Source: a virus
Strand: one strand, 5' to 3'
IMG/VR virus record: IMGVR_UViG_3300045988_145033
Location: 96,001 to 160,000 of that record
Length of the DNA stretch: 64,000 nucleotides
A program made the translations under genes and the position numbers. The notes beneath the pieces were generated by a model that ran no database searches, was not told the DNA's origin, and worked only from the letters and a program-made list of their open reading frames with translations. This document shows, in pieces, positions 5,792 through 54,116 of this stretch (position 1 is its first letter; the number at the start of each line of letters is the position of its first letter).

Positions 5792-5816
5792 CGTAACAGA
5801 TGTATCTAGGAACATA

Positions 5817-5858
5817 GAAAAAAAAATAAAGGTGAGGCGAACCCCACCAATATTCTTT
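5817..5858 (-). terminator. intrinsic terminator (GGUGGGGUUCGCCUCACC plus U-run on the minus strand)
   Basis: A-run, GC hairpin, T-run. The A.C mismatch on plus becomes G.U on minus, so it is minus-oriented. Member of a conserved family. Confidence 0.6.
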
Positions 5859-6292
5859 TATTTCTTTCTTCTGTAAAGAGGTTGGTTTGTTCCTTCCTCT
5901 CTAAGTTGGTCCTTACTTCTTATGTATTCATAGAACCCTTTATGCTTGAAGTCAGCCTTTTTAGTAACTGACCCATCAGGGTTTTGAGTTTCTGTTACAA
6001 TTCTTTCTGAATAAGCATAGAAGCAAGGTATCCATGAGTTAAGGTCCAAACAAATCACATTTACTGCTGGTGGGAATCCAGCTACGTGTATTGCTGTACA
6101 GAAGTTTTGTTCCATGTAGTCAATAACATCATTGCAGACATATAAGTAATTGTCTGGTGTCATTTGACTCCAAGCTTTTTTCAATTCTTCACTCAATTCC
6201 ACAACTTGGTATCCCTTTTCAGCAAGTTCTTGGATTTGATTAAGACCTAATACGTGATTTGAGCAGTTTAACAAGTTTTCTAATTTTTTCAT
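5858..6292 (-). CDS. hypothetical early protein, 144 aa
   Basis: Stand-alone cassette: class A promoter plus conserved leader upstream, intrinsic terminator downstream. RBS AGGAGG. Confidence 0.55.
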   Translation of the reverse strand: MKKLENLLNCSNHVLGLNQIQELAEKGYQVVELSEELKKAWSQMTPDNYLYVCNDVIDYMEQNFCTAIHVAGFPPAVNVICLDLNSWIPCFYAYSERIVTETQNPDGSVTKKADFKHKGFYEYIRSKDQLREEGTNQPLYRRKK

Positions 6293-6340
6293 TTTTGTAC
6301 CTCCTAGTACGGTTATTTTAAATTAAGACTATTTGGAACT

Positions 6341-6356
6341 CCTGAGCCTTCTCAGG
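6341..6356 (-). promoter_or_regulatory. conserved 5'-leader hairpin (stem CCUGAG/CUCAGG, loop AAGG)
   Basis: Between the class A promoter and the RBS. Base-pair covariation across four cassettes. Confidence 0.5.
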
Positions 6357-6368
6357 TTTATTCCTTTT

Positions 6369-6396
6369 GTCTACGTTTATTATATATAATTGAAAT
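6369..6396 (-). promoter_or_regulatory. early promoter, class A: TTTCAATTATATATAATAAACGTAGAC
   Basis: One of 11 copies of TATATWATAWAYGTAGAC, all on the minus strand. About 95 nt upstream of the ATG at 6292. Confidence 0.5.
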
Positions 6397-6410
6397 ATAA
6401 AATCGTGTAA

Positions 6411-6671
6411 TTATCGTTTATTCCAATCTTCGTCAGGGTCGAAACTATTTTCTTTCTCCCATTTAACTTGAGCTTCTCTTGCATTACGAACAGCATCATT
6501 TCCATTATTTCTTGTAATAGATGCACCTTCTGTTACAAAGAAAAAACTCATATTATATTTCTTACAAAGTGCTTCCACTTCCTTACATAACTTTCTCGCC
6601 TTTTCCAACTTCTTTTCATCAATAACCTCTTTTTGAGACTCTGCTATCTTTCTTATTAAGCTTGTATTCAT
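6411..6671 (-). CDS. hypothetical small protein, 86 aa
   Basis: ATG at 6671 preceded by AAGGAGG. The ORF-track N-terminal extension (to 6818) would overlap the divergent + gene and lacks an RBS. Confidence 0.45.
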   Translation of the reverse strand: MNTSLIRKIAESQKEVIDEKKLEKARKLCKEVEALCKKYNMSFFFVTEGASITRNNGNDAVRNAREAQVKWEKENSFDPDEDWNKR

Positions 6672-8229: not shown

Positions 8230-8883
8230 ATGAGAGGTTTCTTAAATAAACTAGAAGAAGTTAATAAAAAGAAAAGACCAAATCTTTATGGTGAAGCTGA
8301 TATAGATGGCTTCGATACATCTACATTTGATTTACCTGATTATATGGGAGCAGATAATGACCCAGTTCCACCAGAACCTGAACCAGAAGAACCAGAGTTT
8401 CAAGAACCTGAAGATGATACAGGAGATGATATACCAGAACCCGAGCCTGAAGAACCAGAGTTTACAGACCCTGACCCAGATGATGGCTTTGACCCTGAAA
8501 ACCCTGAACTTCAAGAAGATGCAGGAGAACCCGGAGATACTCCAAATGAAGACAACGCTTTTACAGAAGGGGAAGATGAGGATACTCCTGTATTTAGAAG
8601 AAAGACTAAAAAACTTAATAAAGCATTTGCATCTTTGTATGACCAATATAAAGACTTAATAGCAAAGCTTAAGAATATAGACGCTACAGGAGATAAGGCT
8701 ACAGTTATAAATACTTATATAGATGAGTATGAAGAAAACTTACAAGCCTTAGTTGAGTATGTAAATGATAATACTGATACTTGGGTTATAAGATTTCAAA
8801 CCTATGTAGAATTTCGTGCTACATTTGCAACTATTAATAAGAAACTGTCTTCTATAGAGGAAGATGTAAATATACTGTCGTAA
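8230..8883 (+). CDS. acidic Pro/Glu-rich protein with tandem PEPEPEEPEF repeats (scaffold-like)
   Basis: 217 aa, very acidic. Two 30-nt near-identical repeat units at 8371-8400 and 8434-8463. Lies between the 485-aa gene and the putative capsid gene, as scaffolds do in T4-like layouts. Confidence 0.5.
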   Translation: MRGFLNKLEEVNKKKRPNLYGEADIDGFDTSTFDLPDYMGADNDPVPPEPEPEEPEFQEPEDDTGDDIPEPEPEEPEFTDPDPDDGFDPENPELQEDAGEPGDTPNEDNAFTEGEDEDTPVFRRKTKKLNKAFASLYDQYKDLIAKLKNIDATGDKATVINTYIDEYEENLQALVEYVNDNTDTWVIRFQTYVEFRATFATINKKLSSIEEDVNILS

Positions 8884-13702: not shown

Positions 13703-13957
13703 AATGTGACAACACTAGATTGTGATAAGTTAGGTATATAACATCTGAAGCTAGAAAAACTGGTACAAGAATATTAGTCGACAATATCTTGGATAGAGTG
13801 TACACAATTAGTTCTAACGTAAGTCCGGTAAACCGCATGGAAGCGTTCAGCAATAGGGCGGAAGTGTTACGAGTGGTTTAGAAGCCTTCGGTAGTTTGAT
13901 GCCTTTATATGCAAACCTTATCACCCGGATAGTCTTTTATACTTTTAGAATATAGAT

Positions 13958-14000
13958 AAAAAAAAATAAAGGGAGGCGAAAGCCTCTCCTTATTTTTATT
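13958..14000. terminator. bidirectional terminator between convergent genes (gggaggcgaaagcctctcc)
   Basis: A9 upstream and T-run downstream. Confidence 0.5.
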
Positions 14001-15039: not shown

Positions 15040-15100
15040 AATATCATTCCTCCTTTTAATTTTAAATTAAGACATTATTGCCTTTTAATATTATTTATTA

Positions 15101-15123
15101 CTATAGTTATTATATATAATCAA
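15101..15123 (-). promoter_or_regulatory. early promoter variant
   Basis: GATTATATATAATAACTATAG upstream of 13996..15039. Confidence 0.35.
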
Positions 15124-15144
15124 ATGCAAAAATTCGTAGGAGCA

Positions 15145-15190
15145 TAAAAAAAATAAGGAGAGGTTTGTGAACCCCTCCAAATTATTTTAG
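15145..15190 (-). terminator. intrinsic terminator (ggagaggtttgtgaacccctcc)
   Basis: A-run, hairpin, T-run. Confidence 0.5.
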
Positions 15191-15438
15191 ATTTTAGTCA
15201 CAGTAATAAATGCAGAGAATATGACAGTATTGTTACCGCTGTCATAAGTTGATGAATATTGTATTTGCGGAATACCATTATATCCATCATTCTTGAATTT
15301 ACAAACCATTTCCAAAACTAAATCTGTTAAAGGAGTTGCCCCCTTTTCAGAAGATGTCCAAACGTGTCCCATACAAACATCTCCTCTCATTTCTCTTTCC
15401 AATCTGTCTCCAATAGTTTCATTAAATAATGTAGTCAT
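15187..15438 (-). CDS. hypothetical early protein, 83 aa
   Basis: Class A promoter, conserved leader hairpin and terminator. Confidence 0.5.
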   Translation of the reverse strand: MTTLFNETIGDRLEREMRGDVCMGHVWTSSEKGATPLTDLVLEMVCKFKNDGYNGIPQIQYSSTYDSGNNTVIFSAFITVTKI

Positions 15439-15480
15439 TTTAAACCTCCTCAGGTATTTTAAATTTTGGCATTAAGAACT

Positions 15481-15496
15481 CTCAACCCTTGTTAAG
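15481..15496 (-). promoter_or_regulatory. conserved 5'-leader hairpin (CUUAAC-AAGG-GUUGAG, one G.U)
   Basis: Same leader position as the other cassettes. Confidence 0.5.
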
Positions 15497-15517
15497 TTTA
15501 TTCTCTTGCTCTTACTT

Positions 15518-15547
15518 TTATTATATATAATTGAAAATAAAAATTAC
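15518..15547 (-). promoter_or_regulatory. early promoter, class A
   Basis: TTTCAATTATATATAATAAAAGTAAGAG upstream of 15187..15438. Confidence 0.5.
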
Positions 15548-15569
15548 GTAACTTCTTCTAGGAACATAG

Positions 15570-15612
15570 AAAAAAAAAATAAAGGTGAGGATAAACCCCA
15601 CCAATATCTTTA
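15570..15612 (-). terminator. intrinsic terminator, same family (ggtgaggataaaccccacc)
   Basis: Conserved 55-nt module that includes CTATGTTCC. Confidence 0.6.
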
Positions 15613-17937: not shown

Positions 17938-17965
17938 CTTATTATAAGAATGCTGTGGAACGTAG

Positions 17966-18006
17966 AAAAAAAAAATAAAGGTGAGGATAAACCCCACCAA
18001 TATTCT
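17966..18006 (-). terminator. intrinsic terminator, same family
   Basis: Near-identical to 15570-15612. Confidence 0.6.
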
Positions 18007-18007
18007 T

Positions 18008-18241
18008 TTATTCATTTAAAGTTAATCTGCGTTTTAGAAGATATATATAATCTTCTAAGATTTTAATATCTGTAGAGAAGTCTTCTCCAAGATATTTATT
18101 TTTTATTGGTGCGTCTGGATTATGTATCCAGTTTGAAGCCTTCATTTGTTCTGAGACTTCTCCTTTCTTTAGTGCAAACAGTCTTCCTTCGGCTGTTTTA
18201 ATTTTGTTTTGGATTACTTCGATTTCTTTTTTATTTAACAT
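18008..18241 (-). CDS. hypothetical early protein, 77 aa
   Basis: Class A cassette. Confidence 0.5.
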   Translation of the reverse strand: MLNKKEIEVIQNKIKTAEGRLFALKKGEVSEQMKASNWIHNPDAPIKNKYLGEDFSTDIKILEDYIYLLKRRLTLNE

Positions 18242-18282
18242 ATTATCTACCTCCTCAGGTATTAAATTTAGACGTCGGAATT

Positions 18283-18298
18283 CTCAACCCTTGTTAAG
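18283..18298 (-). promoter_or_regulatory. conserved 5'-leader hairpin (CUUAAC-AAGG-GUUGAG)
   Basis: Same. Confidence 0.5.
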
Positions 18299-18310
18299 TT
18301 TATTCCTTAT

Positions 18311-18337
18311 CTCTACATTTATTATATATAATTGAAA
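18311..18337 (-). promoter_or_regulatory. early promoter, class A
   Basis: TTTCAATTATATATAATAAATGTAGAG upstream of 18008..18241. Confidence 0.5.
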
Positions 18338-37366: not shown

Positions 37367-37396
37367 AATATCCTCCTTTTAAATTTAGACTATATT

Positions 37397-37419
37397 GTCC
37401 TTACATATATTATATATAA
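37397..37419 (-). promoter_or_regulatory. class B promoter
   Basis: TATATATAATATATGTAAGGAC upstream of 35627..37366. Confidence 0.45.
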
Positions 37420-39890
37420 CTTAAATACGGTATAACTTTCAAGTCCCCCACAGAAGTCATTTCTATAACCCCTATGCTGTCAGCCTCTGTTGCAGAATAG
37501 TATTCGTTATGTGATATAGCAAATACTTGTAAGTCTTTAACTGATGCAAAATTAACTATTATATCTAAGAACTTTCTTTTATTTTCTTTAGACAGAGTTG
37601 CGTCCATTTCATCAAGTATAAAGACATTATAATTTGGTATCATGACGCTATTTAAAGCAAGAGTTGTAGCAAGAGCCATAATAGCCTTCTCACCATCACT
37701 CATCTTAGATATATCGTCTGATACAAACTCATCTTTTTGAACCTTTATTATAAAATCTTTTTCAGTTATTGTAAAATCGTGAACTCTATAAGGAATGTCT
37801 GTAAGCTCTAAGAAGTTATTAGTAATTTCCTTTAGGTTTAGAACTATTCTTCTCATAACTTTAACTGGTAAATGTTTAGTTAAAGTCTCTCTTATTTTTT
37901 CACTATCCTTTTCATCTATTGTGGCTTTTTTGAGTTCATCTTCTACATATTCCCTTAAAGATATATTAAAATCTATTTTCTTTAAACTTTCTTCAAGTTC
38001 TTTTATATTTTCTTCAACTCTTTTAAGTTTCTCTTGAGTCTCAGCTTGCTCTATTCTTTTTGCTTTATCTTTAGCTATGATATTTCTTATGGATACACTA
38101 TCTTCTATTATAGAGAGTTGTATCTCTTGCATATCATTTAAAGACATATTAAAATATTCAGAAGTTTCTATATCTTGTGATACTCTTGGCATCTTCTCAT
38201 TTACCTTTTCTATCTTAGCTAGAGTTTCCTTATATTCTACGTTCCAAGTATCAAGGTTTGTCTTAATTACAACTATATCTCTATTGATAGCTTTATCGTA
38301 CTCTTGTTTCTTTTCAAAATAAGATATAGCAACTCTTGATACATATATTATATCTTCAACAATACCGTCAAAAGAAAAAGCATTGCCATTAAGCAAGTAT
38401 CTTCTGAAGTTATCTTTTGATTTTAGAAAATCTCCGAGTATAGATAAAGTATCATTATTCTCTATAATAGAATATACAAGTTTTATATTATATAGTGCAT
38501 TTACTTGAGTATCATACTTGTCAAGCTTTAACTTAACTTCTGATAATCTTTCTTTACTATCTTGTATATCCTTTACTATAGCTTCATATTCTTCAAGTCT
38601 TGCCCTCATATTTATAAACTCTTTTCTAAGTAAGCAAGTCTCATCTTTGCAAGACTCGGGTGGAGAAACTAGATTATCAGCTACGTATTTCTCTTCTCTT
38701 AATCTTTCTAGTCTTTCTATCTTATTTTCTAATTCACTATATAAAGCTTTAATAGGTGCTACACTTGTGTGTACTTCATTGTATACATCTTTCATATCTA
38801 CAAAATTAGAAATGTCTTCTATATTACTTAGAAACTCTTTAATCTGATTATAACCTAATATAAAAGAAGATAGCTTATCGTTTGTAGTAAAATGTCTTTT
38901 ATTATTAATAGATAAATATTCGTGATTATTAAGTTCTTTCTTTATTACATCTACGTCTATTTCAGATGCTATCTGACTTTCTGCAAGTCTTAAGTTAGCA
39001 TCTACTATATTTTTAGATAGAAGCTCTAATGCTCCTTGAAGTTTTGACTTTTCATTTCTTCTAGCGGACATATAATCTCCTAGAGTTGTAAGTATCTTAT
39101 ACTCATCTATTATATCTCTTATCTTAGTTATTATATCGGAATCTCTATCAAGTTCTTCTACTTGCATTTTAAGCTTTAATACTTCTTCATCAGACATACA
39201 GACATTCTCGTCTTTTACTTTATTTTCTAAATTCTTAAGTTGAGCTATCTCAGCCATAGTATTTGATTTATCCATGAGTAAACTCTCAGAACTTGGAAGA
39301 TTTGATAGTTCTTTTTCTTTTGCTTCTCTTGTCTTTTTAGAATGAATGTATTTTTCAGATATAACTTTCACAAGTTCTTTTGTATCTCCTATCGGTGATA
39401 TAGATTGCATGAAATCTCTTCTTGCTCCAGATTTCATATTTACTATACCTCTGTCTTCAGAATTAAGATACGCAAGTTTCATAAGTTTTGTATCAAGTCC
39501 TATCATCTGCTTAATACGAGCTTTAACTTCATTAACTGATGAACTTTCAACTATCTGAACTTGCTTCCCGTTTTCTATCTTAGCAAGGTCAGCAATACAA
39601 GAATGTGACTCTCCATTAGGTTTATATATATAATGAACTTTATAATCTTCGCTATTATATGTAAAATACACAATCTTCTCACCAGTTTCGTAAGGTACAA
39701 TATCGTATCCGTCGGAAATCGACGGAAGCAAGTTAAGTTCAGATGCGAGTGTTGATTTCCCAGTTCCATTATCTCCTACTATCATAATAGTGTGATAATC
39801 TTGTGGAAATTCTATATCTATTTTAGTTCTTTTTGTTCCTTTTACAAAACGATTAAAATTAACAAGTATTATTCTTTTAAGTTTAACCAT
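37410..39890 (-). CDS. SbcC/Rad50-like (T4 gp46-like) recombination ATPase with a long coiled coil
   Basis: Walker A GDNGTGKST at the N-terminus. ABC signature MSDGEKA and Walker B VFILDEMD at the C-terminus. About 500 aa of coiled coil between them. Confidence 0.6.
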   Translation of the reverse strand: MVKLKRIILVNFNRFVKGTKRTKIDIEFPQDYHTIMIVGDNGTGKSTLASELNLLPSISDGYDIVPYETGEKIVYFTYNSEDYKVHYIYKPNGESHSCIADLAKIENGKQVQIVESSSVNEVKARIKQMIGLDTKLMKLAYLNSEDRGIVNMKSGARRDFMQSISPIGDTKELVKVISEKYIHSKKTREAKEKELSNLPSSESLLMDKSNTMAEIAQLKNLENKVKDENVCMSDEEVLKLKMQVEELDRDSDIITKIRDIIDEYKILTTLGDYMSARRNEKSKLQGALELLSKNIVDANLRLAESQIASEIDVDVIKKELNNHEYLSINNKRHFTTNDKLSSFILGYNQIKEFLSNIEDISNFVDMKDVYNEVHTSVAPIKALYSELENKIERLERLREEKYVADNLVSPPESCKDETCLLRKEFINMRARLEEYEAIVKDIQDSKERLSEVKLKLDKYDTQVNALYNIKLVYSIIENNDTLSILGDFLKSKDNFRRYLLNGNAFSFDGIVEDIIYVSRVAISYFEKKQEYDKAINRDIVVIKTNLDTWNVEYKETLAKIEKVNEKMPRVSQDIETSEYFNMSLNDMQEIQLSIIEDSVSIRNIIAKDKAKRIEQAETQEKLKRVEENIKELEESLKKIDFNISLREYVEDELKKATIDEKDSEKIRETLTKHLPVKVMRRIVLNLKEITNNFLELTDIPYRVHDFTITEKDFIIKVQKDEFVSDDISKMSDGEKAIMALATTLALNSVMIPNYNVFILDEMDATLSKENKRKFLDIIVNFASVKDLQVFAISHNEYYSATEADSIGVIEMTSVGDLKVIPYLSYI

Positions 39891-45870: not shown

Positions 45871-45906
45871 TTTTAATTCCTCCTTAAAATTTTTATTATG
45901 ACTTTC

Positions 45907-45926
45907 GCCTACATATATAATATATA
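45907..45926 (-). promoter_or_regulatory. class B promoter embedded in an inverted repeat
   Basis: cgccTATATATTATATATGTAGGCG. The GTAGGCG half-site is the reverse complement of the CGCCTA start of the element. Confidence 0.45.
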
Positions 45927-45937
45927 GGCGAAATATC

Positions 45938-47862: not shown

Positions 47863-47882
47863 TGTCTACATATATAATATAT
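47863..47882 (-). promoter_or_regulatory. early/middle promoter, class B (drives the RNAP beta-C gene)
   Basis: TATATATTATATATGTAGAC, about 50 nt upstream of the ATG. Confidence 0.5.
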
Positions 47883-47888
47883 AGATAA

Positions 47889-47922
47889 AAAATAAAGGGT
47901 GGGTTTAACCACCCCAGTATTT
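47889..47922 (-). terminator. intrinsic terminator (gggtgg-gtttaa-ccaccc)
   Basis: Downstream of the lipoprotein gene. Confidence 0.55.
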
Positions 47923-48625: not shown

Positions 48626-48660
48626 AAAAAAGAAAGGTGTAAGTAAATTACACCAATCCT
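48626..48660 (-). terminator. intrinsic terminator (ggtgtaagtaaattacacc) overlapping the HTH gene stop
   Basis: Hairpin plus TTTCTTTTTTG on the minus strand. Confidence 0.5.
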
Positions 48661-48989
48661 TTTAGTGATTTGAATTTTTTAATTAGGTTATAGACCTTAA
48701 CCAAATCGCTTTGAGATAGACTAACTATCTCACTATTTATTTCAGAAATGTAATCTACCAAATCCTCACATAAAAGGTAACGGATATCTACCTTCAATGC
48801 TCTTGACAAGTTAGATAAAGATGAGACCTTAATTTTCTTAAACACACAAGTCTCGTACTTGTGAACTTGCATATATGTCTCTCCAATTAAGTCACCAAGT
48901 TCACTTTGAGAAAGCCCTAATCTAGTTCTTTCTCTGAAAATCCTTCTTGCCATTTCTCTAGTCAATTCCACTCTTAGTATTGCTGTCAT
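48648..48989 (-). CDS. XRE-family helix-turn-helix transcriptional regulator
   Basis: LGLSQSELGDLIGETYMQVHKYE is a typical HTH_3. 113 aa. Class A promoter plus leader. Confidence 0.6.
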   Translation of the reverse strand: MTAILRVELTREMARRIFRERTRLGLSQSELGDLIGETYMQVHKYETCVFKKIKVSSLSNLSRALKVDIRYLLCEDLVDYISEINSEIVSLSQSDLVKVYNLIKKFKSLKGLV

Positions 48990-49031
48990 ATCTAGTACCT
49001 CCTTAAGGGTATTAAATTATCCCGATGAGTT

Positions 49032-49047
49032 CTTAAGCCTTCTTAAG
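49032..49047 (-). promoter_or_regulatory. conserved 5'-leader hairpin (CUUAAG-AAGG-CUUAAG)
   Basis: Same. Confidence 0.5.
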
Positions 49048-49058
49048 TTTACTCTTGG

Positions 49059-49086
49059 GTCTACATTTATTATATATAATTGAAAA
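49059..49086 (-). promoter_or_regulatory. early promoter, class A (drives the HTH regulator)
   Basis: TTTCAATTATATATAATAAATGTAGAC. Confidence 0.5.
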
Positions 49087-54031: not shown

Positions 54032-54077
54032 AAATTATCACCTCTTTCTCAAAAAAATGTTAGTGACAGATATGAAA

Positions 54078-54116
54078 ACCAAAAATAAAGGGTGAGGATA
54101 AACCCCACCCAATATT
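54078..54116 (-). terminator. intrinsic terminator, same family (gggtgaggataaaccccaccc)
   Basis: Downstream of 54117..54950. Confidence 0.55.

Follow-up and report, generated by a model that had tools for sequence, protein, structure and literature searches.

The window analysed here, a 64,000-nt stretch of IMG/VR virus record IMGVR_UViG_3300045988_145033 (positions 96,001 to 160,000 of that record), comes from a Fusobacterium nucleatum phage of ~180 kb and is 92–96% identical to the phages JD-Fnp1, 4, 6 and 7. On its minus strand lie four near-identical cassettes, named class A (Table 1), each of which runs in order through a T-rich tract, the 19-mer TTCAATTATATATAATAAA, a (G)TAGAC-like box, a leader, an A/U-rich spacer of the AAUUUAA type, GGAGG and ATG. 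The 19-mer is present in four exact copies, against 0.79 matches expected in the window with up to three mismatches allowed. The genes served by these leaders encode three small proteins without assigned function (neither PHROGs nor Pfam yielded one for these three of the four) and one helix-turn-helix protein. The units of copies 1 and 3 each consist of one gene, closed directly by a strong terminator; the unit of copy 2 reaches its strong terminator after a second gene. Small early units of the window are closed by a family of intrinsic terminators (Table 1), and one member precedes the promoter box of copy 2 by ~25 nt. In most related copies the T-run of the upstream terminator abuts the box, an arrangement visible in the window at copy 3.

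Table 1. Class A cassettes, their truncated relatives, further early-type cassettes and intrinsic terminators, in window coordinates
Feature	Position	Strand	Remarks
Copy 1, promoter-like box TTCAATTATATATAATAAA	6376..6394	-	T-rich tract just upstream; predicted +1 = A at 6372
Copy 1, whole 5'-terminal hairpin domain	6326..6372	-	MFE -16.0 kcal/mol; sense z = -4.25; covariance-model match 60.4 bits
Copy 1, P1	6372-6369/6329-6326	-	
Copy 1, P2	6364-6360/6339-6335	-	
Copy 1, internal loop	6359-6357 opposite 6340	-	AAA opposite A
Copy 1, P3	6356-6351/6346-6341	-	CCUGAG/CUCAGG; loop AAGG 6350-6347
Copy 1, small hairpin around Shine-Dalgarno	6290..6309 region	-	GUACU-AGGA-GGUAC; GGAGG 6304-6300
Copy 1, gene	5858-6292	-	ATG 6292-6290; 144-aa ORF; terminator after it at 5831-5848
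Copy 2, 19-nt promoter-like box	15517..15535	-	predicted +1 at 15513
Copy 2, hairpin domain	15469..15509	-	z = -3.04 sense, -0.16 antisense; covariance-model match 53.4 bits
Copy 2, P3	15496-15491/15486-15481	-	CUUAAC/GUUGAG, one U.G; loop AAGG 15490-15487
Copy 2, gene	15187-15438	-	Shine-Dalgarno 15449-15445; ATG 15438; 83-aa ORF
Copy 3, 19-nt promoter-like box	18318..18336	-	predicted +1 at 18314
Copy 3, hairpin domain	18270..18312	-	z = -3.31 sense, -0.30 antisense; covariance-model match 64.3 bits
Copy 3, P3	18298-18293/18288-18283	-	CUUAAC/GUUGAG, one U.G; loop AAGG 18292-18289
Copy 3, gene	18008-18241	-	Shine-Dalgarno 18254-18250; ATG 18241; 77-aa ORF; terminator 17957-18003
Copy 4, 19-nt promoter-like box	49066..49084	-	predicted +1 at 49062
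Copy 4, hairpin domain	49021..49059	-	covarying lower helices P1 CCC/GGG, P2 GAGU/ACUC; sense z = -2.76; covariance-model match 56.6 bits
Copy 4, P3	49047-49042/49037-49032	-	CUUAAG/CUUAAG; loop AAGG 49041-49038
Copy 4, gene	48648-48989	-	Shine-Dalgarno 49002-48998; ATG 48989; 113-aa helix-turn-helix protein
Truncated leader relative	15051..15090	-	P1-like hairpin only, P2 and P3 absent; covariance-model match 23.9 bits
Second truncated leader	37368..37405	-	GGAC-AAUAUA-GUCU hairpin only; variant promoter box at 37406-37424
Six further early-type cassettes	predicted starts 54992, 48604, 47867, 45910, 37402, 17920	-	TATATAWTATATA-N-GTAGAC-like
Near-identical intrinsic terminators	5808-5854, 13947-13993, 15561-15607, 17957-18003, 47874-47920, 54068-54114	minus-strand reading	GGTGAGG..CCCCACC + T-run

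No sigma-70-type -35/-10 promoter was called on the minus strand at the class A box, where a T-run occupies the -35 position. The box is almost identical to the promoters of g001 (ttttcaattatatattataaagatG) and g157 in the Bacillus phage AR9: TTCAATTATATATAATAAA-NGT-A in the class A cassettes is to be set beside ttcaattatatattataaagat-G for g001 and atatatataat-aaaaaa-G for g157. In AR9, the early promoters that have been mapped are used by the virion RNA polymerase and have the consensus AAATATATATTAT-N6-G+1 (PMC5312081). The class A box shares with the AR9 and phiKZ early promoters an extended, highly conserved A/T-rich element and a purine start, here a predicted one, 6 nt downstream, and it is preceded, as in phiKZ, by a T-rich tract. 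Gene content resembles these phages as well. The minus-strand ORF 45938-47824 matches a chain of the AR9 non-virion RNA polymerase (nvRNAP; 7S00_C, E = 8e-27) and is a homologue of the beta-type subunit g089, with a weaker match to phiKZ gp71; it sits behind a sister early cassette, as is expected of early genes in this strategy. A tblastn search of the JD-Fnp6 genome found homologues of the AR9 nvRNAP subunits g089 and g154 and of the virion polymerase (vRNAP) subunits g145 (1e-45) and g189 (2e-14), the latter pair on the opposite strand. This phage lineage thus encodes homologues of both AR9 sets of split multisubunit polymerases, virion and non-virion; the published description of the JD-Fnp phages makes no mention of RNA polymerases. 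By analogy with AR9, we place the transcription start at the invariant A of (G)TAGAC (see Table 1), and the promoter would be read by the phage virion RNA polymerase early in infection.

With the start placed at this A, the hairpin begins at +1 to +5. Minimum-free-energy (MFE) folds of the leaders, both the four window copies and their relatives, give one extended stem-loop with three helices, P1, P2 and P3. In the window this domain comprises 13–15 bp in about 40–47 nt. P1 pairs AGAC(A) with (U)GUCU and P2 pairs GGAAU with G/AUUCC, their places being taken in copy 4 by CCC/GGG and GAGU/ACUC; the internal loop is asymmetric, with AAA on its 5' side and a single A on its 3' side. Across the family, 13–17 base pairs are arranged in three coaxial segments with two internal loops, and they span approximately two helical turns. 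The Shine-Dalgarno sequence lies past the A/U-rich spacer, 16–22 nt downstream of the 3' end of the hairpin and ~40 nt from the tip of P3. No U-run follows the hairpin on the sense strand.

An earlier note on this DNA had described, in four leaders, a 6-bp stem closing an AAGG tetraloop, and had taken this conserved, structured 5' leader for a functional RNA. All four hairpins exist exactly as described, on the minus strand; the positions by which they were located (6341, 15481, 18283 and 49032) are right, each being the last base of a 3' arm. The stems do differ and still pair, in three distinct versions rather than four (copies 2 and 3 share CUUAAC/GUUGAG), and their changes are compensatory: among the window copies there are double changes at three of the six pair positions, besides one U.G. 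The view that this is a functional RNA in a conserved leader is supported, but the stem, our P3, is only the apical third of the three-helix stem-loop. Other particulars need amendment. The leader, put at about 90 nt, is a 5' UTR of 73–80 nt when counted from the predicted start. The GTAGAC box does belong to the cassettes; taken by itself, GTAGAC shows no enrichment across the window (26 occurrences, 20.7 expected). The AAGG loop, called invariant, is so only within the window; it is found in 31 of 66 distinct copies when the relatives are included, the others having AAUGG, AUGG, ACGG, AGGG and similar loops.

We assign the structure to the sense strand, and hence to the RNA, on two grounds: every one of the 61 wobble pairs predicted across 66 folds reads as G.U on that strand, and the two copies that contain G.U pairs (2 and 3) lose their structure when the opposite strand is folded (Table 1). 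In each of the 66 distinct full-length leaders the MFE structure is an extended hairpin at the 5' end, never shorter than 12 bp and on average 15 bp long, with a mean z of -3.95. The first paired base falls at +1 to +5, relative to a start that is predicted rather than mapped, in all of these 66 and in 10/10 predicted early cassettes of the window.

Relatives were collected by scanning IMG/VR with the 19-mer as the query and the leader left unconstrained, which gave 75 loci, mostly from human oral metagenomes. The earlier note had proposed a covariance-model search of the genome and its relatives, and such a model, built from 61 unique leaders and run with filters off, finds exactly four full copies in the window along with the two truncated versions that retain P1 only. 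It detects 85 copies (68 distinct) in all loci, several of them behind non-identical promoters; in the complete JD-Fnp6 genome it picks out seven, which share a single strand. RNAalifold, applied to a plain MAFFT alignment, recovered only P3, because P2 occurs in two registers (GGAAU/GUUCC and GAGU/ACUC); a 17-pair structure was then supplied by hand and the sequences were realigned to the covariance model. Rfam 15 gave no family match anywhere in the window at gathering thresholds, and a permissive Rfam scan of 6270-6420 returned only a chance match to SNORD111, on the wrong strand (E = 2.3). The class A leader is a well-supported new RNA motif, absent from Rfam 15, the function of which is inferred.

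Among the 68 distinct sequences, standard pairs fill 83% of pair cells, compared with 73% in shuffles, and double-sided changes are seen at 14 of the 17 modelled pairs, among them every one of the six pairs of P3. The observed covariation score, 0.305, compares with 0.144 for shuffled alignments (0/500 shuffles reach the observed value) and 0.04–0.08 with slid partners, although the shuffle control overstates significance because the 68 sequences are related to each other. Three lines of support are independent of that control. First, the relatives contain 21 distinct P3 stems and all 21 pair. Second, orthologous genes of different phages bear different P3 stems (one gene has five), and the leaders of one orthologous pair (L034 and L023) differ solely in one double change from G-C to U-A. 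Third, among the matches listed, 22/22 family copies have at least five pairs between flanking anchors, as against only 4/234 non-family sequences with the same anchors; one of these four exceptions (L044) is actually a family copy with a variant promoter. Further compensatory changes, in P1 (AGGCA/UGCCU, ACAGA/UCUGU) and in P2 (GAAGU/GCUUC), come from copies that the model detected independently of an exact promoter. These comparisons show that selection maintains the pairing of P1, P2 and P3 alike. When the P2 anchors alone were used to scan viral and bacterial collections, the matches listed were chance ones, with no new family members among them, and provided a negative control.

Two further groups of leaders came to light among these loci. 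In a variant class (L006, L017, L026, L033, L038, L052 and L071) the architecture is the same and P2, the internal loop and P3 are different (GAC-AA-UAAUAUG-AAUGG-CAUAUUA-G-GUC); these leaders precede orthologues of the window's 144-aa gene. Five other loci (L028, L049, L054, L063 and L070), on large viral contigs of 147–208 kb, carry the identical 19-mer box followed by an unrelated leader, which in three of them (L028, L054 and L063) has a G/C-rich hairpin immediately before the Shine-Dalgarno sequence.

Another key feature of the family is the uneven distribution of change along the leader. In orthologous leaders, P3 and its loop differ at 0.178 per site and the rest of the leader at 0.046; in the same comparison the genes differ at 0.165 per site in coding sequence and at 0.279 in third codon positions. 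Relative to the genes downstream, the hairpin base is the better conserved. From these values we conclude that the sequence of P3 drifts almost neutrally with pairing kept. The conserved parts are the hairpin base, the A-rich internal loop (a near-invariant UAAA/A) and the A-N-G-G apical loop: 64/66 apical loops end in GG and 60/66 begin with A, with CUG and GUUGU as exceptions. A few orthologous pairs have near-identical genes and quite different leaders, which points to exchange of cassettes by recombination; for example, the L067 and L039 proteins are 95% identical, yet nine of the 15 positions of P3 plus loop differ. A conserved partner for the GG of the loop, such as a CC near the Shine-Dalgarno sequence, was sought by eye; the window copies have one but most relatives lack it, which leaves a pseudoknot unsupported.

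The class A hairpin has simpler counterparts. All ten predicted early minus-strand cassettes of the window have a hairpin at +1 to +5, then an A/U-rich stretch and a strong Shine-Dalgarno sequence; JD-Fnp6 contains 19 such cassettes, all on one strand, of which 17 start with a hairpin. The short 5' hairpins of the six further window cassettes, several with GNRA loops, are followed by the same AAAUUUAA spacer and GGAGG. Overall, the non-class-A leaders have stems of 3–6 bp, often closed by GNRA loops (GAGA, GAAA), so that class A represents the elaborate version; the P2–P3 module is confined to class A among the early cassettes. The truncated leader at 15051..15090 likewise leads into the same AAUUUAAAA spacer and a Shine-Dalgarno sequence, and has a weaker copy of the promoter box upstream, at 15106-15124. 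One of the early promoters (window 45902-45936) has its A/T-rich box bracketed by a perfect 9-bp inverted repeat, TTTCGCCTA...TAGGCGAAA.

We hypothesize, with a probability that we put at about one half, that the class A leader protects and insulates early mRNAs as a hairpin at their 5' terminus, within cassettes that are portable units of early expression, and perhaps is a protein-binding site as well. The hairpin would form from the first nucleotides of the early mRNAs and would serve chiefly as a cap that shields them from decay starting at the 5' end; a putative RNase J is present in the host. It would also keep the downstream ribosome-binding region from mispairing and so insulate the translation start from upstream sequence. 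The same cassette could then confer high expression when placed before any gene, as a portable unit, and the conserved apical and internal loops suggest a second layer, namely a specific binding partner. The reading as a 5'-end cap draws on the extreme 5' position, a paired stem that is free in sequence, an open A/U-rich ribosome-binding region, and the presence of a hairpin in every early cassette. As to the host's enzymes, pull-downs from F. nucleatum have reported a putative RNase J, RNase III, RNase R and PNPase, and Fusobacteria are without CsrA, Hfq and ProQ (PMC11039985).

There are well-known stabilising stem-loops at the 5' ends of bacterial and phage mRNAs, among them the E. coli ompA leader hairpin, the T7 gene 10 leader and the B. 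subtilis ermC and aprE stabilisers. Class A shares with them a start near the (predicted) 5' end, a stem that is free in sequence with pairing kept (here, the 21 paired P3 stems and 0.178 against 0.046 differences per site), and an open ribosome-binding region thereafter. On the other hand, the class A hairpin is far more elaborate, with its three helices, A-rich internal loop and A-N-G-G loop, and it is repeated ~7 times per genome in a fixed cassette.

Several observations weigh against the cap. The early leaders of AR9, nine of which we folded, are 26–50 nt long and essentially unstructured despite near-identical promoters, in contrast to the present phage, in which a 5' hairpin follows every such promoter in the window and reaches 40–47 nt and three helices in class A; the AR9 host also has RNase J1. 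It follows that the 5' hairpin is a trait of this phage lineage and not a general need of the promoter type, and we discarded the idea that it is common to AR9-type early transcripts. At 3–4 bp and -2 to -4 kcal/mol, the short hairpins of the remaining cassettes would protect only weakly. Moreover, a simple thermodynamic clamp does not account for loops that end in GG and begin with A, or for the UAAA/A internal loop; stable GNRA loops, as in the short leaders, would serve a clamp equally well. Neither the loop bias nor the near-invariant internal loop is fully accounted for by any reading offered here. The AR9 report mentions an unexplained 5' UTR motif in early transcripts (PMC5312081).

It is these loops that give a specific operator its place as a serious, if doubtful, alternative: a phage-encoded, virion-delivered or host protein would bind the A-N-G-G loop and the internal loop and set the translation, timing or shut-off of the ~7 immediate-early mRNAs per genome. 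The nucleotides of both loops are kept while the P3 stem between them drifts, and the P2–P3 module occurs in class A only, other early cassettes managing with a plain short hairpin; both observations favour an operator. However, no candidate binding protein emerged, the few copies with quite different loops (CUG, GUUGU) fit poorly, and the conservation of the loop could stem from shared descent or from gene conversion among cassettes. A translational operator was among the functions that the earlier note had offered; in the form of direct blocking of the ribosome site it is unlikely, given the distance of the Shine-Dalgarno sequence from the hairpin and the A/U-rich spacer between them. Two specific readers of the loop were considered and rejected. 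A CsrA-type site is contradicted by the host's lack of CsrA and by the fact that just 9 of the 64 GG-ending loops continue as GGA; KhpB is unsupported, its published binding being largely sequence-independent and directed to single strands.

The conserved features of class A, namely hairpin base, A-rich internal loop and A-N-G-G loop, might also be an identity tag carried by the ~7 immediate-early mRNAs, the reader of which (a phage protein that is delivered in the virion or made early, or else the phage's own polymerase) would grant them privileged stability or translation, or impose a scheduled shut-off. We raise this proposal beside the host's lack of the usual global RNA-binding proteins, and consider it unlikely.

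The earlier note had also suggested an RNase processing site, which, like a protein operator, is a possible function. Hairpins cut by RNase III, typically with about two helical turns (roughly 20 bp) of near-continuous double-stranded RNA, occur in phage early transcripts, such as the T7 R1.1-type sites and the conserved sites in SP82 early leaders, which are likewise repeated, conserved and interrupted hairpins in the early mRNAs of lytic phages. Cleavage of class A by RNase III, removing the triphosphate end and setting mRNA stability or translatability, would suit three coaxial helices with small internal loops that extend over some two helical turns in a host with a putative RNase III, as well as these precedents. 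The fit is nevertheless poor enough for us to think it improbable: class A lies at the extreme 5' end and not between cistrons, it has fewer paired bases (just 13–17 bp, in A/U-rich stems), and the 3–6-bp hairpins at the same position in the sister cassettes cannot be substrates.

More improbable still is a co-transcriptional signal to the polymerase, be it for pausing, promoter escape, attenuation or anti-termination. The hairpin would indeed form immediately after initiation, and the 5' arm of P1 overlaps the conserved, initially transcribed AGAC; even so, the U-run is absent, AR9 promoters of the same type work without a hairpin, and read-through is not evidently needed in units that end at a strong terminator directly (copies 1 and 3) or after a second gene (copy 2). 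The terminators and the missing U-run also make anti-termination, another of the functions suggested in the earlier note, unlikely. The elements known to act on downstream terminators are the lambda nut site, where boxB has a 5-bp stem and a GNRA-like pentaloop next to boxA, and the two-hairpin put element of HK022. Class A has neither a boxB-like loop nor the two-hairpin architecture of put, and we rejected its membership of both families: it is a single extended hairpin with A-N-G-G loops, in units that end at strong terminators.

Promoters of the N4 type extrude a hairpin from the template strand, at a site upstream of the start. We find it barely credible that class A acts at the DNA level (as a template-switch palindrome, a cruciform or N4-like promoter hairpin, an antisense terminator or a recombination hot-spot cassette like those of T4): although copy 1, read in reverse complement on the plus strand, receives a terminator-like score and leaders have been swapped between orthologous genes (L067 and L039), only copy 1 so qualifies, the stems are too A/T-rich for a terminator, two of the four copies are unfolded on the antisense strand, the hairpin lies downstream of the predicted start, wobbles are tolerated only as G.U on the sense (non-template) strand, and recombination explains the spread of the cassette but not the pairing kept in 21 different stems. 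The T4-type PeSL elements, ~100-bp conserved cassettes of promoter and structure before small genes of no assigned function, have as their stem-loop a G/C-rich terminator that lies at a sigma-70 promoter or upstream of it (PMC2839356, PMC4122927). Class A is similarly a promoter-plus-structure cassette before small genes, with signs of exchange by recombination. It differs in that its hairpin is an A/U-rich transcribed leader, downstream of a promoter that is not of the sigma-70 type and of the predicted start, with separate G/C-rich terminators; membership of the PeSL group was rejected on these grounds, there being no sigma-70 consensus promoter and the hairpin not being a terminator.

F. 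nucleatum phages are under development against a cancer-associated bacterium, and we know of no account of their gene expression. The present data supply a testable map of early transcription units, with an AR9-like promoter, predicted start, leader, ribosome site and terminator, and a new RNA structure for which the covariation evidence is unusually clean. Should the hairpin stabilise or insulate the mRNA, as in our preferred reading, the cassette could be used as it stands for strong expression in a host that is difficult genetically; should a factor bind the conserved loops, they offer a route into post-transcriptional control in a phylum that has no Hfq, ProQ or CsrA.

Two minor features of the window remain to be described. 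A second small hairpin encloses the Shine-Dalgarno sequence on the minus strand at 6296-6309 (GUACU-AGGA-GGUAC), 18247-18260 (UACCU-GAGG-AGGUA) and 15443-15455 (GACU-GGGA-GGUC). It is present in roughly 55 of the 66 distinct leaders, at -2.5 to -5 kcal/mol, with an outer pair that covaries (G-C, U-A, A-U), and could tune translation initiation. Finally, imperfect tandem repeats of a CCAGAACC-rich unit at 8370-8474 on the plus strand encode a Pro/Glu-rich stretch within ORF 8230-8883.
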